Source: Patescibacteria group bacterium
GTDB lineage: Bacteria > Patescibacteriota > Patescibacteriia > SG8-24 > DYFX01
NCBI GenBank assembly: GCA_038062835.1
Contig: JBBTWH010000001.1
Coordinates: 42,982-106,981 of the forward strand
Reading direction: 5' to 3'
Length of the DNA stretch: 64,000 nt
The translations under genes and the position numbers were made by a program. The notes beneath the pieces were generated by a model. That model made no database searches and had not been told where the DNA came from. It saw only the letters and a program-made list of their open reading frames with translations. Each line of letters starts with the position of its first letter. Positions within the stretch are counted from its first letter, which is position 1. Positions 3,831-58,967 of the stretch are shown one piece after another.

Positions 3831-3989
3831 ATGGAGAATCAGCCCTTCGCGGTAAAAACGAAGACGCGCATCTCGACCAAGACGAAGGTCGTCGTCGCCC
3901 TGGCGCTCATCACCGGGGCCGTCATCGCCTACGCCGTCGCGGTCGAGATCAAGGCGCGGCGACCCGGAGATTGGTCCATCAGCTCCTGA
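3831..3989 (+). CDS. small single-TM protein, 'MENQP' paralog 3 (52 aa)
   Basis: MENQPFAVKTKTRISTKTKVVVALALITGAVIAYAVAVEIKARRPGDWSISS. cgCTATACTGAAGGTG lies 31 nt upstream. Confidence 0.5.
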   Translation: MENQPFAVKTKTRISTKTKVVVALALITGAVIAYAVAVEIKARRPGDWSISS

Positions 3990-4023: not shown

Positions 4024-4071
4024 AAAAGCCAGCCATGGGAATGGCTGGCTTTTGATCAGACGCGTGGGTCG
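4024..4071 (+). repeat. repeated terminator-like element copy 1 (aaagccagcc-loop-ggctggcttttga + ACGCGTGGGTCG)
   Basis: A hairpin plus T-run, then a conserved 12-mer. A second copy lies at 6113-6160. Confidence 0.5.
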
Positions 4072-6112: not shown

Positions 6113-6160
6113 AAAAGCCAGCCAATTTCTTGGCTGGCTTTTGACCAAGCACGTGGGTCG
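6113..6160 (+). repeat. repeated terminator-like element copy 2
   Basis: aaaagccagcc-aatttctt-ggctggcttttga + ccaagCACGTGGGTCG, homologous to 4024-4071. Confidence 0.5.
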
Positions 6161-51621: not shown

Positions 51622-51745
51622 AAAGCCAAAAGTTCAAAGCAAGAAGCTGGAAGCCAAAGGTCAAAATTCAAAAGCCCGAGCTTTTTTCTTGCAGCTTCTG
51701 ACTTCCCGCTTTTGGCCTTTGACTTTTGGCTTTTTGCTTTCATAT
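51622..51745. repeat. AT-rich about 120-nt imperfect long hairpin between porA and porB (encodes K-rich mini-ORF MKAKSQKSKAKSGKSEAARKK... on minus strand)
   Basis: Left arm gcaaaaagccaaaagttcaaag... and right arm ...ctttgacttttggctttttgc. Local GC is far below its surroundings. Confidence 0.45.
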
Positions 51746-52864
51746 TCAGGCGTTCTTGATGAGTTCCACGATCTCCTCGGGATAGATGCCGATGGAGGGG
51801 CGGAAGTGTTCGATCATCTTCGGGCCGGGCATGTCGTACAAACCGTCGCGCACGATGCGGGCGAGCTGGTTGATGGCGGACTCGGCGAGAATGATGGTGT
51901 CGGCGCCCTTCGCCGCTTCGAGCAGGGCCTTCCGCGGGAACGGATTGATGGTGATGGGACGGAAGAGGCGCGCCTTGCCGCCGGTGGCGTCGATGGCGGC
52001 CTTGGCGGCCTGCGAGACGATGCCGTGCGCGACGACGAGCACCTTGGCGTTCGGGTCGCCGTACGACTCGTGCTCCTCGATGTCCGGCGCCATCTTGTCC
52101 CAAGCGGCCTTGATCTCCATGTTCACCTGGAGCGTCTCCTCTTCGAGGTTCAGGCAGTTGCGGTAACAGGAATATTCCACGCCGTCCTGGACGCGGATGT
52201 GCACTTCGGGTTTCGGCACGACTTCGTTGATGGGCCGATCGCGCTTTTCTTCGAGCAAGTAGCGTTCCGTCGGCACCGTCTCGATGCCGCGCGAAGCGGG
52301 ATCGTACAGCTCGACCTCGCCCATCATCTTGGCCTGGTAGCCGTCGGAAAGCAGGAAGGTCGGGAAACGATATTTCCAGGCGATGTTGAAGACCTTGATG
52401 CCGTAGTCGTAGAGCTCCTGCAGGGTCGCCGTCGAATAGACGATGCGGTAGCCGTTGCCGTTGCCGCCGTAGGCGGTGAGGTTCACTTCGGATTGCGAAT
52501 AGATGACGGTGGAGGTGGACGGGCCGCCGCGCATGTTGATGTAGGCGACGGTCGGCGTGCGCATCGCCTCCGCCATCGAGAAAGCGTCCTGCATCAGGAT
52601 GTTGCCGGGACCGGCGGTGACGGTGAAGGAGCGGCGCCCGGCCAAGGTGGAGCCGAGCAGCATGAACGACGCGCCGATCTCATCCTCGGCCTGTACGAAC
52701 ACCATGTCGTCCTTCTTCCCCTGCTCCGAACCGGCCTCCTTCGCCCACCAAAGCAAAATCTCCGACCCTGGCGTGATCGGATACCCATACATGGCCGTCG
52801 CCCCGGCAGCGCGCGCCGCCCGAGCCAGGACCTCGTTGCCCATCATGAACTGTTTTTCGGGCAT
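51746..52864 (-). CDS. porA: 2-oxoacid (pyruvate/2-ketoisovalerate):ferredoxin oxidoreductase alpha subunit
   Basis: MPEKQFMMGNEVLARAARAAGATAMYGYPITPGSEI, POR_N domain. The -10 TGcTATACT lies 6 nt before ATG. Confidence 0.85.
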   Translation of the reverse strand: MPEKQFMMGNEVLARAARAAGATAMYGYPITPGSEILLWWAKEAGSEQGKKDDMVFVQAEDEIGASFMLLGSTLAGRRSFTVTAGPGNILMQDAFSMAEAMRTPTVAYINMRGGPSTSTVIYSQSEVNLTAYGGNGNGYRIVYSTATLQELYDYGIKVFNIAWKYRFPTFLLSDGYQAKMMGEVELYDPASRGIETVPTERYLLEEKRDRPINEVVPKPEVHIRVQDGVEYSCYRNCLNLEEETLQVNMEIKAAWDKMAPDIEEHESYGDPNAKVLVVAHGIVSQAAKAAIDATGGKARLFRPITINPFPRKALLEAAKGADTIILAESAINQLARIVRDGLYDMPGPKMIEHFRPSIGIYPEEIVELIKNA

Positions 52865-52881
52865 GCCCGCAGTATAGCAAA
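52799..52881 (-). repeat. 83-bp direct repeat copy A (porA promoter + codons 1-22)
   Basis: Matches 54798-54880 at 80 of 83 positions. Confidence 0.85.
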
Positions 52882-52900
52882 CAAGGCCCCGAAGGGCCTT
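52877..52900 (-). terminator. hairpin (aaggccc-cgaa-gggcctt) after beta-helix gene / before porA promoter
   Basis: Perfect 7-bp stem. Confidence 0.4.
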
Positions 52901-52931
52901 GTGGGGACTGTGGAGACATTTGACGGCCGCA

Positions 52932-54863
52932 TCATCCAGACAACGGGGTACCGACCGTGTAATTCACCCAGAAAGCGTCAGAGACGTCGTCGATCATGCG
53001 ATTCCATCCGTCGCCGTACAGCTGACGCGCCGCCGCCTCCGACGGCACCAAGCGGAGGATGCCCGCGCGCGAAACCACGTAGACTTTAGGGTCGCTCTGG
53101 ACCTTGATCATGCGAGCGCCTGGCCGGTAGGTGATGTTGCCGCCAAGGGGGATGCCCGCCAGCGTCGCGTCAGAAACAGTCGCGATGCCGTTGAAGTCGG
53201 CGTACCAGGTGAAATAGGCCCTGTCGTTCACGAAGACGTAGCGTTTACCGTCGGCGCCGCAGTAATAGACCGCCGGCAACGTTCCCCTGACGCGCGATCC
53301 GGAGACGCAGGGCGGCGAGGAAGCGGTGGTGAGGCGCTTGTCCGTATTGATGTCCCACGTCGAAGCCATCGCGACCATCGCCGTGTAGTCGCCCGCCACG
53401 GTCGGATCGGTCGCCGGCGGAATGGATCTTCCCGAACCATCGGGGTCATAGCCGTTACGCGCTTCGTCGCCGTCCTTGAATCCATCGCCGTCCGTGTCAG
53501 GATTCGACGGGTTCGTATTGAAATGCCCGGTCTCCTCGGCATCGGAAAGCCCGTCGCCGTCGGTATCCGCCGGCAACAGTGCGGATGGTGGCGCGGGTGT
53601 GGGTGTGGGTGTGGGTGTGGGTGTGGGTGTGGGTGTGGAACCCGGCGCCGTGCAGGCCAGCGGCGCATGGGCCTTGGCAGACTGACAGATGTTGCCGCCG
53701 CCGTCGACGACCATGCTTTGGGGACCGAAGAGGAGCCCGTTTCCCGTAACGCCGAAATCGTTGGCAGTAAAGACGTTGTTCGAAAGGATAAAATCGCCGG
53801 AGCCGATATCGTGGCCGTCCTGTGGGATGTTCGCCACGGCGACGCTCGAGAAATCGAACTCGGCGTTGAAATCGGCGGGACTCGCGGCATTCAATACGCG
53901 ATTGCCGCGGAACGTGTTATCCGTGAAATAGACCTTGCTTTCCGACGGCTTGAAACGGTACGCCCGGAAGAAATAGAACATCCGCGCCGAACCGCCCTCG
54001 ACCGTATTATCGGAGACGGTGTTCGATTTCCAGCTGTTGAAGTACCAGCCGCCGATGCCGCAGACCAGCGAGCGGTGGATCCGATTGCGGTCGAAGATCG
54101 TCCGTTCAATGAGGCCTACCGTCTCGATCCCGCAATCGTAGTTTCCCGCGGTATCGTTATCCCGGACCACGTCATCGCTCTCGTCGATCAGCACGATGCC
54201 GTCATCGAGCCCGAGATGATCCGCAGGCGCGTCCCTGCCAGTCAGGGTATTGGCCGTAATCGCGTTCCGGCGGCCGTTCGAGACGCTGATGAGCGCGGGA
54301 ACGTCGAACGTGGCCGTCCGCATCGAGAGCGTGTTGCGCTCGATCTTGCTGTCAGACGAGCCGTTGAAGGTGAGCGCCGCCGCCATGGTGTTGTCGTGGA
54401 CATCGATGAACGATGAGTCATTGATGCTCGCGTCGATGTACGCATCGGACGAAGATGTCGTCAGGGTATTGCCGGTGATCTCGCCGCGCGTGCCTCGGAC
54501 GACGTAGAGGAAGGAGCGGTGCTGAGCGCCATCATCCTTGGTATTGAACCTGCAATTCTTGAGCGTGAAATCGCTGACGTCGGTGAACTCGAACGCCCGG
54601 TAGAAGTCGTTGATCGTGTTGTTCTGGCAATCGATGACGACATCGTGCGTGTCGTGGATGCTGAAACACGGCGTTCCGACGTTCGTCGACAAGGTCTGTT
54701 CGAGGACGTATGTGCCGCTTGCAGTGATTTCCCGGCAACTGGAAAGCACCATCGGGGCATCCGCCGCCGCCGTGAAGGGAACGAGCAGCATCAGGACCGC
54801 CCCGGCAGCGCGCGCCGCCCGAGCCAGGACCTCGTTGCCCATCATGAACTGCTTTTCGGCCAT
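52932..54863 (-). CDS. secreted right-handed parallel beta-helix repeat protein with TSP3-like Asp-rich repeats, (PT)7 linker and conserved C-terminal module
   Basis: The N-terminal 22 aa are copied from PorA and continue into an h-region and AxA site (AVLMLLVPFTAAADA). Has NTxT beta-helix repeats, DTDGDGLSD...DTDGDGFKDGDE and PTPTPTPTPTPTPT. The C-terminus is homologous to the C-terminus of 8847-10598. Confidence 0.65.
   Translation of the reverse strand: MAEKQFMMGNEVLARAARAAGAVLMLLVPFTAAADAPMVLSSCREITASGTYVLEQTLSTNVGTPCFSIHDTHDVVIDCQNNTINDFYRAFEFTDVSDFTLKNCRFNTKDDGAQHRSFLYVVRGTRGEITGNTLTTSSSDAYIDASINDSSFIDVHDNTMAAALTFNGSSDSKIERNTLSMRTATFDVPALISVSNGRRNAITANTLTGRDAPADHLGLDDGIVLIDESDDVVRDNDTAGNYDCGIETVGLIERTIFDRNRIHRSLVCGIGGWYFNSWKSNTVSDNTVEGGSARMFYFFRAYRFKPSESKVYFTDNTFRGNRVLNAASPADFNAEFDFSSVAVANIPQDGHDIGSGDFILSNNVFTANDFGVTGNGLLFGPQSMVVDGGGNICQSAKAHAPLACTAPGSTPTPTPTPTPTPTPAPPSALLPADTDGDGLSDAEETGHFNTNPSNPDTDGDGFKDGDEARNGYDPDGSGRSIPPATDPTVAGDYTAMVAMASTWDINTDKRLTTASSPPCVSGSRVRGTLPAVYYCGADGKRYVFVNDRAYFTWYADFNGIATVSDATLAGIPLGGNITYRPGARMIKVQSDPKVYVVSRAGILRLVPSEAAARQLYGDGWNRMIDDVSDAFWVNYTVGTPLSG
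53595..53638. repeat. (GGGTGT)7 hexanucleotide microsatellite encoding the (PT)7 linker
   Basis: Seven perfect tandem copies inside the CDS. Confidence 0.85.
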
Positions 54864-54880
54864 GCCCGCAGTATATCAAA
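54798..54880 (-). repeat. 83-bp direct repeat copy B (promoter TGaTATACT + start + 22 codons of beta-helix protein)
   Basis: See 52799-52881. Confidence 0.85.
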
Positions 54881-55073
54881 AAAGAGGGGCGGCGGCGTCA
54901 TCGGTCGCGAGCTGGCGCCGGGAAGAGGTATGTCGCTGTTGGAACGGACGCTGCGCTCGCGACCGCTGCCGCCGCCTTGGTGGGGACAAGAACCACACTG
55001 ATTCGAGGCTTGACATTTCGCCTCCGAGGTGGTAGACCGGCGCGGTACGCAACCCGTGAAAGGAGTTCATTCG

Positions 55074-55961
55074 ATGCGCAAAGGTCTCATGATCGCCGGT
55101 ATCGCCGTCTTCGTCCTCGTCTGCGGCAGTTTCCTAACTTGGTGCGGCTTCGCCCGCAACCCGGAATCGCCGGCCGGCTACGTCGGCTACTGCACGCAGG
55201 GCTCGATGTTCGGCAAGGCCGAGTTCTACGGCATGCAGAAGGGTCCGACCTCCCCCGGCCGGACCTGGATGCTCGAGTGCGTGAATATCAGCATCACGCC
55301 GTACACCTTCACCGAGACGTTCACCGCCGAGGATTCGGTGCTCTCGAGCGACCAGCTCAAGCTCTCGGTGAACATGCACGTCACCTTCAAGATCGACGAG
55401 GCCAAGGTGCGCGCCTTCGTCGAGGAGTACAGCACCCTCCACGAAGGCGCGAAGGACCCGAACAAGGTCGTCCAGGTCGCCTACGACAACTACCTGAAGC
55501 CAAAGATGCGGGCGTTCGTCCGCAGCGAGATCCAGGAGCGCGTGTGGGGACAAGCCGTCAAGGAGATGCTGTTGATCGGCACCAGCGTCCAGGATGACCT
55601 CGTGGCGTCCACCAAGGACACGCCCTTCGTGGTGATGAGCGTCGTCATCGACAGCATCCAGCCGCCCAAAGAGGTGGCCGACGCGGTCTCGATGAAGCTG
55701 GCCACCGATCAGATCCTGGCCCGCAAGGACGCCGAGGTCGAGATTGCCAAGAAGGACGCCGCCAAGCGCGAGGAGGAAGCCCGCGGCATCGCCAAAGCCA
55801 TGGAGATCATCAACGGCAAGCTGTCGCCGATGTACCTCCAGCACGAGGCCATCGAAGCGCAGAAGATGATGGTCGGTTCGCCGAACCACACCACCATCTA
55901 CATCCCGGTCGGCACGAACGGCGTGCCTCTGACAGGCACCTTCGACGCCTCCGGCAAGTGA
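55074..55961 (+). CDS. SPFH/band-7 (stomatin/prohibitin/HflC-like) membrane protein
   Basis: N-terminal TM segment, an SPFH domain and a coiled coil (EVEIAKKDAAKREEEARGIAKA). AAAGGAG SD lies upstream. Confidence 0.75.
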   Translation: MRKGLMIAGIAVFVLVCGSFLTWCGFARNPESPAGYVGYCTQGSMFGKAEFYGMQKGPTSPGRTWMLECVNISITPYTFTETFTAEDSVLSSDQLKLSVNMHVTFKIDEAKVRAFVEEYSTLHEGAKDPNKVVQVAYDNYLKPKMRAFVRSEIQERVWGQAVKEMLLIGTSVQDDLVASTKDTPFVVMSVVIDSIQPPKEVADAVSMKLATDQILARKDAEVEIAKKDAAKREEEARGIAKAMEIINGKLSPMYLQHEAIEAQKMMVGSPNHTTIYIPVGTNGVPLTGTFDASGK

Positions 55962-56057
55962 CCCCTCCGTGAGGGGTCTTTTTCTTTACTCCAACGCCCA
56001 AGGAGATTTTTTAGGCGTATACAAATACACGATATCCTCGGTACCGATGTACGTATC

Positions 56058-56624: not shown

Positions 56625-56966
56625 TCATTCTAACGCCCAAGGACTCTTTTTGGGAGTGTACAGGTACACGATCTCCTCCCCCTCCACGACGATCTCGATT
56701 TTTTCCAAATTGGCTCCCTCCGGCGCCGCCGTGTCGGGGACGGCTTGGCCCGTCGTGCATTCGTAGCGGGCGCCGTGCCAGTCGCATTCGAAATGCTCGC
56801 CGACGCAGCGGAGCTTGCCGCCCATGTGCATGCACCAGTCGACGTAGCCACGCAAAGAATCTCCGGTGTTGACGATAATCAAATCGCGCCCCATGGCGCG
56901 GTAGCTTTTGGCGCGGCCGACGGGGACGTCGGAAACTTTACCAAGGGTGATCCTTTGCGTCGTCAT
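56625..56966 (-). CDS. Rieske [2Fe-2S] domain protein
   Basis: CMHMGGKL(x)...CDWHGARY, the CxH-CxxH Rieske ligands. Confidence 0.7.
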   Translation of the reverse strand: MTTQRITLGKVSDVPVGRAKSYRAMGRDLIIVNTGDSLRGYVDWCMHMGGKLRCVGEHFECDWHGARYECTTGQAVPDTAAPEGANLEKIEIVVEGEEIVYLYTPKKSPWALE

Positions 56967-58891: not shown

Positions 58892-58967
58892 GGCCTTCAG
58901 TATATCACGGGTCGACATGCGGGAGATTCGCCAATAATAAAAATCCCCCGTGGTGCGAGGGATACGC

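Follow-up and report, generated by a model that had tools for sequence, protein, structure and literature searches.

Gene-end displacement arrays, formed for example by Rhs C-terminal displacement, by the orphan modules of contact-dependent growth inhibition (CDI) systems and by the effector-immunity loci of the Vibrio cholerae type VI secretion system (T6SS), are built on a conserved anchor gene (PMC5361080, which cites Jackson 2009 and Poole 2011 for gene-end displacement). In these arrays a newly arrived module comes with its own gene end, and the end that it displaces stays behind as a direct-orientation remnant, so that alleles of different lineages come to lie side by side. Here we describe a locus with a related organization in a 64,000-nucleotide (nt) stretch of DNA from a Patescibacteria group bacterium (assembly GCA_038062835.1, contig JBBTWH010000001.1, positions 42,982 to 106,981). 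We refer to this whole stretch as the window, and all coordinates below are positions within it. An island of genes lies between a Rieske gene and porA, the first gene of a 2-oxoacid oxidoreductase operon, and the island gene nearest to porA, which codes for a beta-helix protein, begins with a second copy of the promoter and start of porA.

The island works like a displacement array. Its conserved anchors, Rieske and porA, stand beside strain-variable content (the gap between them ranges from about 32 nt to 0.6-4.3 kb), and each anchor has a displaced end in direct orientation (55986-56039 for Rieske and 54798-54884 for porA). As in the known arrays, the incoming module would have brought its own gene end while the old end persisted, and for the Rieske pair alleles of different lineages lie side by side. 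The island is nevertheless not a member of this group, because its cargo is not a polymorphic toxin tip with an immunity gene, as in the arrays, but consists of beta-helix/TSP3, SPFH and 185-amino-acid (aa) membrane proteins. The anchors, a Rieske gene and a 2-oxoacid oxidoreductase operon, are also unlike toxin-immunity loci. Two kinds of gene end appear to have been displaced here, a 3' end and a 5' end with its promoter, and the latter has not been left as an orphan: the incoming gene would use it for its promoter, its start codon and its signal-peptide n-region. The process is a known one, and what is unusual is that the displaced element is a promoter-bearing 5' end and has probably been reused.

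Foreign DNA flanked by a duplicated anchor is also produced when homology on one side is combined with a single illegitimate joint, as in homology-facilitated illegitimate recombination during natural transformation (de Vries & Wackernagel 2002, Prudhomme et al. 2002 and Meier & Wackernagel 2003, as cited in PMC5361080), or when a circular molecule integrates by a single crossover (PMC3240628), and the size range and geometry of such events fit this locus. Those events were obtained in the laboratory, in Acinetobacter, Streptococcus, Pseudomonas and E. coli, whereas this would be a natural product in an uncultured member of the Patescibacteria that arose by a similar route. Integrative elements with gene-end attachment sites (typically the 3' ends of tRNA genes) and a replacement gene end of their own are likewise flanked by gene-end direct repeats and leave the target gene intact. 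Here, by contrast, the insert consists of one gene, no integrase gene lies within it or next to it, and one of the repeats spans a promoter and a 5' coding region. Transposons generate target-site duplications of 2-15 bp. These too are direct repeats that immediately flank the insert, but the repeats in the island are 87 and about 54 nt long, there are no inverted repeats at the ends of the inserts, and there is no transposase. We therefore rejected a transposon as the source of the repeats, and we also rejected an integrase element, because the repeats share no sequence with each other and the open reading frames (ORFs) of the island encode no recombinase domain. Pfam domains of a transposase or integrase were absent from all three island genes.

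A second porA start in front of a beta-helix gene

A repeat search of the window found a direct repeat of 87 nt, 52799-52885 versus 54798-54884, in which 83/87 positions are identical and the spacing is 1999 nt. The mismatches between the downstream copy (copy D) and the upstream copy (copy U) are at 52853/54852, 52861/54860, 52877/54876 and 52882/54881, with C at 54852, C at 54860 and T at 54876 specific to copy U, and the first 54 nt match perfectly. An earlier annotation of this DNA, made from the sequence alone and called the original prediction below, had put the identity at 80 of 83 over an 83-bp repeat, and we obtained the same figure over that span. The features of this part of the locus are:

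51746-52864, minus strand: porA, 2-oxoacid:ferredoxin oxidoreductase alpha subunit (Pfam POR_N and PFOR_II; identical to MEK7545541.1)
52799-52885, minus strand: copy D, comprising a T-run, an extended -10 element TGCTATACT (52871-52879), 6 nt, an ATG at 52864 and porA codons 1-22 (MPEKQF...)
52881-52902, minus strand: hairpin resembling an intrinsic terminator, with a 9-bp stem and a UUCG loop, between the stop codon of the beta-helix gene and copy D (from folding)
52932-54863, minus strand: chimeric ORF of 643 aa (Pfam Beta_helix, NosD and TSP3_bac), with porA-derived residues 1-22, native hydrophobic and cleavage regions of a signal peptide at 23-36, a right-handed beta-helix at about 37-430, TSP3 calcium-binding repeats at about 430-480, and a widespread C-terminal domain at 480-643
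54798-54884, minus strand: copy U, comprising a T-run, an extended -10 element TGATATACT (54870-54878), 6 nt, an ATG at 54863 and 22 porA-type codons (MAEKQF...)
54888-54976, minus strand: long hairpin directly upstream of copy U (-52 kcal/mol, z = -3.7), followed by CCCCUCUUUUUU, with a run of six U (from folding)

Both genes and both repeat copies are on the minus strand. Read on the sense strand, each copy is CTT(G/T)TTTG(C/A)TATACT-GCGGGC-ATG followed by 22 codons for M(P/A)EKQFMMGNEVLARAARAAGA, and the elements that the original prediction listed, a TGnTATACT -10 element, an ATG 6 nt further on and 22 porA codons, are present in both. Copy U is joined in frame to the beta-helix gene, the fusion junction being 54798/54797. 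The repeats flank the gene and its terminator, as had been proposed: the ORF, read from 54863 to 52932, and the hairpin at 52881-52902 are bracketed by the copies. The U-rich tail of this hairpin extends into the -10 element of porA. Elsewhere in the window, repeats that bracket a gene and duplicate a gene end are limited to a 50-nt repeat of the Rieske 3' end, described below. The only repeated 31-mers in the island are those of the porA-type repeat core and of a Pro-Thr hexamer run at 53595-53638.

Much of this region is reproduced in independent sequence data. Two ENA assemblies from well H41 at Hainich contain the 3' end of the beta-helix gene, the hairpin and porA at 99.9-100% identity, and copy D recurs in the independent contigs L001 and L002. 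One Logan contig holds copy U with its specific single-nucleotide polymorphisms (the right-hand part is reproduced in L007), joined to the SPFH side, and ends at 54822, where the first unique 31-mer lies. We looked up the exact protein product of the beta-helix gene with seven start sites and with forms cut at the ends of k=31 contigs; all were negative, but so was a control 3' fragment, which makes these negatives uninformative. In the protein record that is probably the window's own source (MEK7545541-544, from an NCBI metagenome-assembled Patescibacteria genome with a 115-kb contig), SPFH is MEK7545543, the 185-aa protein is MEK7545544, and exactly one protein, MEK7545542, is numbered between porA and SPFH. 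We regard the fusion junction as real, because an assembler needs reads to make such a join, and because an accidental join that is in frame and preserves a leader is unlikely (we estimate about 0.5%). The central observation of the original prediction, a duplicated porA start and leader fused to a beta-helix gene, is confirmed.

The sequence TGnTATACT has 9 matches in the window, compared to 0.15 expected (motif enrichment). At five genes, both repeat copies included, the distance from it to the ATG is 6-9 nt and a ribosome-binding site is absent, and the exact 9-mer of copy U also precedes two other genes in the window. The enrichment and the spacing indicate that leaderless starts from an extended -10 element are probably normal in this organism, which supports the promoter function proposed for the repeat. 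A generic promoter and terminator scan missed both promoters and both hairpins, and we used motif enrichment and folding instead.

The remaining TGnTATACT sites are at 2587, 3768, 17150, 32379, 40855, 58899 and 59825. The site at 58899 implies that a GSDH-family gene starts at MKFPKG..., well within its longest ORF. Three copies of a 113-nt repeat (2629-2741, 2833-2945 and 3831-3943; 76-87% identical), for which Rfam gave no family match, are located near two of the sites. A 48-nt unit occurs twice, at 4024-4071 and 6113-6160 (79% identical, 2089 nt apart). Each unit consists of a terminator-like hairpin, AAAAGCCAGCC...GGCTGGCTTTT, and a conserved tail, and the pair might bracket another cassette. 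Within the oxidoreductase operon, porA-B-G-D (to 49859), the spacer between porA and porB (51622-51745) is 124 nt long, AT-rich, and folds as one long hairpin (-58 kcal/mol, z = -4.0); it is single-copy in the window and is also present in contigs L001 and L002, whereas relatives have only 2-60 nt between these genes. The NCBIfam label of porA remains generic (2-oxoacid:acceptor oxidoreductase alpha subunit).

The nearest homologs of the fusion protein are 35-51% identical to it over the beta-helix domain, and the C-terminal 160 aa form a separate, widespread domain. All the homologs carry an N-terminal leader of their own, which immediately precedes a conserved PINSC/ITSC motif–for example, MKKILVIGLLSFVIPLTMTADTAMPINSC in P0215 and MKRILTGAIGLFLLSGVWVSPSAWAASPINSC in P0269–and residues 23-43 of the window protein (VLMLLVPFTAAADAPMVLSSC) match the hydrophobic and cleavage parts of these leaders. 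HMMER alignments to the homologs begin at query residues 21-30, which is the fusion point. The onset of homology and the homologs' leaders together suggest that the native hydrophobic and cleavage regions have been kept, and that only the charged start of the signal peptide has been replaced by the porA part. The chimeric leader has two arginines, R15 and R18 (net charge +1), ahead of an uncharged 16-aa core, AAGAVLMLLVPFTAAA, that straddles the junction. Both arginines and four residues of the core come from the porA part. The mean hydropathy of the core is 2.32, comparable to that of homologs P0002 and P0006. The leader thus has the charged n-region and the uncharged hydrophobic core of 10-20 aa that characterize Sec-type signal peptides, whereas a start at Met25 would leave no charged n-region.

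These results bear out the proposal that the arginine-containing porA segment serves as a signal-peptide n-region. At the AxA cleavage site that was proposed with it, small residues are available, but a cut at ADA/P places Pro at +1. Because Pro at this position is disfavored by signal peptidase I, cleavage one to three residues earlier (TAA/A or AAA/D), or an uncleaved anchor, is more likely. The cleavage sites of homologs resemble that of the window protein (TADTA/MP and AWA/AS). The AlphaFold model is confident over residues 35-330, with predicted local distance difference test (pLDDT) scores of 80-98 in the beta-helix core, and has a detached low-confidence helix at residues 12-26. Foldseek matches point to a pectate-lyase-type fold common to polysaccharide lyases, glycosidases and tailspikes, and a sequence search of solved structures with the beta-helix protein found nothing significant. 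The Thr-Pro linker between the beta-helix and TSP3 parts is encoded by the hexamer tandem repeat (GTGTGG on the plus strand) at 53595-53638. Because this run exceeds k=31, contigs assembled from short reads are probably interrupted there, and its length may be variable.

The Rieske-porA gap and its second repeat

The 3' end of the Rieske gene is also present twice, in direct orientation, around another island gene. The features on this side are:

56625-56678, minus strand: working 3' end of the Rieske gene (gene 56625-56966), EEIVYLYTPKKSPWALE and stop
55986-56039, minus strand: displaced Rieske 3' remnant, EDIVYLYTPKKSPWALE and stop, repeating the last 18 codons
56058-56615, minus strand: gene for a 185-aa membrane-anchored protein of unknown family, between the two Rieske 3' ends
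55007-55983, plus strand: self-contained SPFH/Band 7 module with promoter, gene (55074-55961) and terminator

The two Rieske 3' ends differ at 12/54 nt, among them a serine codon that is TCT in one copy and AGT in the other, yet the encoded residues are the same except for 1 amino acid. Among 200,000 simulations with 12 random changes, none (0/200,000) had one amino-acid change or fewer. Because of this disparity, the two ends are alleles, each of which evolved as a working gene end in a separate lineage, and the remnant was brought beside the resident copy by recombination, as opposed to having been duplicated in place and then decayed. The remnant is in frame with the 185-aa ORF and lies just beyond the TGA stop codon of that ORF.

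The organism is one of the GC-rich, Paceibacter-like Patescibacteria. In relatives without an island, porA follows the Rieske gene after about 32 nt and there is no TATACT element (loci L071, L072, L020 and L011). Among the relatives with a long contig, L071 is the closest to the window (95% porA identity), with which it is otherwise fully syntenic. In the window, the gap contains a 3.76-kb island that comprises the genes for the 185-aa membrane protein, for SPFH (encoded on the other strand) and for the beta-helix protein. Eight other loci (L010, L012-L017 and L068) have unrelated inserts of 0.6-4.3 kb in the gap: the insert in L010 is probably a restriction-modification pair, judging by a methyltransferase motif, and the one in L015 codes for a secreted protein. 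Several relatives have an acyltransferase-3 gene just 5' of porA. All the island-bearing relatives have a hairpin, a T-run, CTTTTTTGnTATACT, six bases and the ATG in front of porA, a layout that is missing from the island-free relatives. We found no duplicated porA start among the relatives examined, and no other gene-end remnants in the loci of 60 relatives. The island insert has no anomaly in GC content or skew, so a foreign origin cannot be argued from its composition. In one relative (L073:1-1250), a few kb beyond the por/acetate-kinase cluster, a reverse transcriptase gene is located beside one for a bAvd-family protein, a pair that is the signature of a diversity-generating retroelement.

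The flank of copy U (54912-54974) matches the porA-upstream region of relative L068 at 58/63 nt (z = 38), whereas for the flank of copy D no match was significant. The L068 match shows that copy U sits in the genuine, ancestral context of a porA promoter. The coding differences between the copies (Ala/Pro at codon 2 and AAG/AAA at codon 4) are both polymorphic among the porA genes of relatives. The differences are compatible with two alleles, though four sites are too few for proof and have no statistical weight. An assignment of the copies to lineages by sliding identity against L010, L020, L068 and L071 was abandoned, as the distances were approximately equal and there was no breakpoint.

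Variation is also seen within the Hainich groundwater population. Contigs L006 and L009 from this population are almost identical to the window rightward from 55005-55007, and leftward they have unrelated sequence (variant head ACCCATCAATTTCATC...GTCCAGC/GGCTTGACA, at L006:1-60 and L009:1-29). The 60-nt head of L006 has no match among the sequences that we compared. In L073/L074, an SPFH module 92% identical to that of the window faces an acyltransferase gene, which is followed by a hairpin, TATACT and porA. Three different left neighbors therefore abut the SPFH boundary at 55005-55007 (those in the window, in L006/L009, and at L073:9934), and the island is polymorphic within the Hainich population. 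This supports the suggestion in the original prediction of a presence/absence cassette to the extent that the variability is real, but it concerns the whole gap: the variant diverges at 55005 and not inside the repeat. The single-copy genotype that was predicted to result from recombination between the repeats was not found among the contigs and relatives examined. Four Logan contigs from four different runs all stop at 54930, inside the loop of the long hairpin, where the window has no repeated 31-mer; the shared endpoint implies that there is a further haplotype, or that this sequence also occurs in other DNA.

Origin of the repeats

On balance we favor an origin by homology-anchored acquisition of cassettes, which displaced the ends of the anchor genes, with one displaced end being reused as a promoter and leader. 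Displacement between island alleles fits the data better than a copy made in place, because of the context of copy U and the diverged Rieske alleles. The direction given in the original prediction, in which the porA start was duplicated to create that of the beta-helix gene, is thus probably wrong. Its wider claim of promoter and leader capture was right about the anatomy and probably right about the function, while for the origin, displacement in the course of cassette exchange is the better description.

Under this hypothesis, the Rieske-porA gap would be a hotspot of cassette exchange in a Paceibacter-like lineage of Patescibacteria. DNA from a related strain would enter the cell, one of its ends would pair with a conserved flanking gene, and the other end would join illegitimately; alternatively, a circularized fragment could integrate by a single crossover. 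By either route, the resident and incoming versions of the gene end would both be retained and would flank the new gene as a direct repeat. At porA, a 5' end that stayed upstream (T-run, extended -10 element, leaderless ATG and 22 codons) would have been joined in frame to a beta-helix gene that had lost its own 5' end, and the join would fall between the charged start and the hydrophobic core of that gene's own signal peptide. Transcription and translation of the beta-helix gene would now start from copy U, which would also contribute the charged leader, and copy D, behind the beta-helix terminator, would continue to drive porA. The same process on the Rieske side would have placed the 185-aa gene between two Rieske 3' ends. 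Homology-anchored displacement has been proposed for the T6SS immunity arrays of V. cholerae and for Rhs C-terminal displacement (PMC5361080), and single crossovers with duplications of 109-950 bp have been recovered experimentally (PMC3240628).

Several points weigh against this hypothesis. We did not find a donor allele with a native beta-helix 5' end, and identity to the nearest homologs is about 50% across part of the domain. Because the two porA copies differ at no more than 4 sites, their allelic origin is unproven, and relatives are about equally distant from the window, such that neither copy can be assigned to a lineage. No independent contig crossing 54797/54798 was found. Lastly, it is from the sequence that we infer expression of the fusion gene from copy U and export of its product.

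The alternative that survives best, for the porA pair alone, is an event in place, in which a 5'-truncated beta-helix fragment was inserted at codon 22/23 of porA, a staggered break or slippage during replication duplicated the 87-nt target, and the copies diverged at four positions later. The copies are indeed 95% identical, in direct orientation, and bracket the insert exactly; copy U would occupy the ancestral context in this case too, and separate alleles cannot be proven from four differences. We consider it unlikely, because the sister repeat at the Rieske gene, with its 12 changes and one amino-acid difference, is incompatible with duplication followed by decay, because transposase and terminal inverted repeats are lacking, and because both coding differences between copies U and D coincide with standing polymorphisms in relatives. 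We also know of no enzymatic basis for the duplication of an 87-nt target.

A site-specific system, in which a recombinase encoded elsewhere moves modules (the 185-aa gene, SPFH and beta-helix here, and the acyltransferase in relatives) and the repeats are attachment-site duplications that rebuild the ends of target genes, would account for the discrete and reused SPFH boundary with its three left neighbors, for the two gene-end duplications within one island, and for the recurrent insertion at one junction across lineages. It is improbable, however, given that the island genes lack integrase and recombinase domains, that the two repeats have no common core and are ordinary coding sequence of the flanking genes without a conserved att motif, and that homologous pairing alone explains the pattern of diverged alleles. 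We give equally little credence to the related idea that the Rieske-porA junction is a dedicated cassette site, where promoter-gene-terminator modules with fixed, reused boundaries, such as the SPFH module at 55007-55983, are exchanged by an unrecognized guided process, resembling an integron with no integrase nearby; in such a system the unit of hairpin, T-run and TATACT could be the joint between modules.

Slightly less probable again is that copy U is an inert scar and that the beta-helix gene is silent, decaying, or started internally at Met25 or Met38. In favor of this reading, the n-region is unusually long (18 aa) with a net charge of only +1. Nevertheless, the frame of 643 codons is intact, the -10 element of copy U is identical to those of two other window genes, the internal starts would have no charged n-region or no leader at all in a family whose members are all secreted, and an n-region of 18 aa is also found in homolog P0006.

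Finally, a chimeric contig mis-joined through a repeat common to co-occurring strains is very improbable, even though the sequence comes from a metagenome-assembled genome, its population is heterogeneous here (variant heads at 55005 and the common contig break at 54930) and independent contigs do not span 54797/54798, since a graph assembler cannot join porA to the beta-helix gene without reads that hold the join, a chance join would have to fall in frame within a few codons and keep the hydrophobic core, the other junctions are independently reproduced, and the NCBI numbering, in the record that is probably the window's own source, leaves room for one protein between porA and SPFH.

A variable slot in a reduced genome

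The locus provides a natural example of how a gene that arrives without its 5' end can obtain from one recombination scar a promoter, a start codon and the charged segment of an export signal, and the essential neighbor porA still has its own copy of the start region. It extends gene-end displacement from toxin loci to a promoter-bearing 5' end, and to the reduced genomes of uncultured Patescibacteria, in which mechanisms of gene gain are poorly documented. The perfect 54-nt core of the repeat makes the beta-helix gene deletable through ordinary homologous recombination. The Rieske-porA junction is a strain-variable slot for genes of the cell envelope, and this slot could be a marker for tracking strains and for studying surface variation in groundwater populations.

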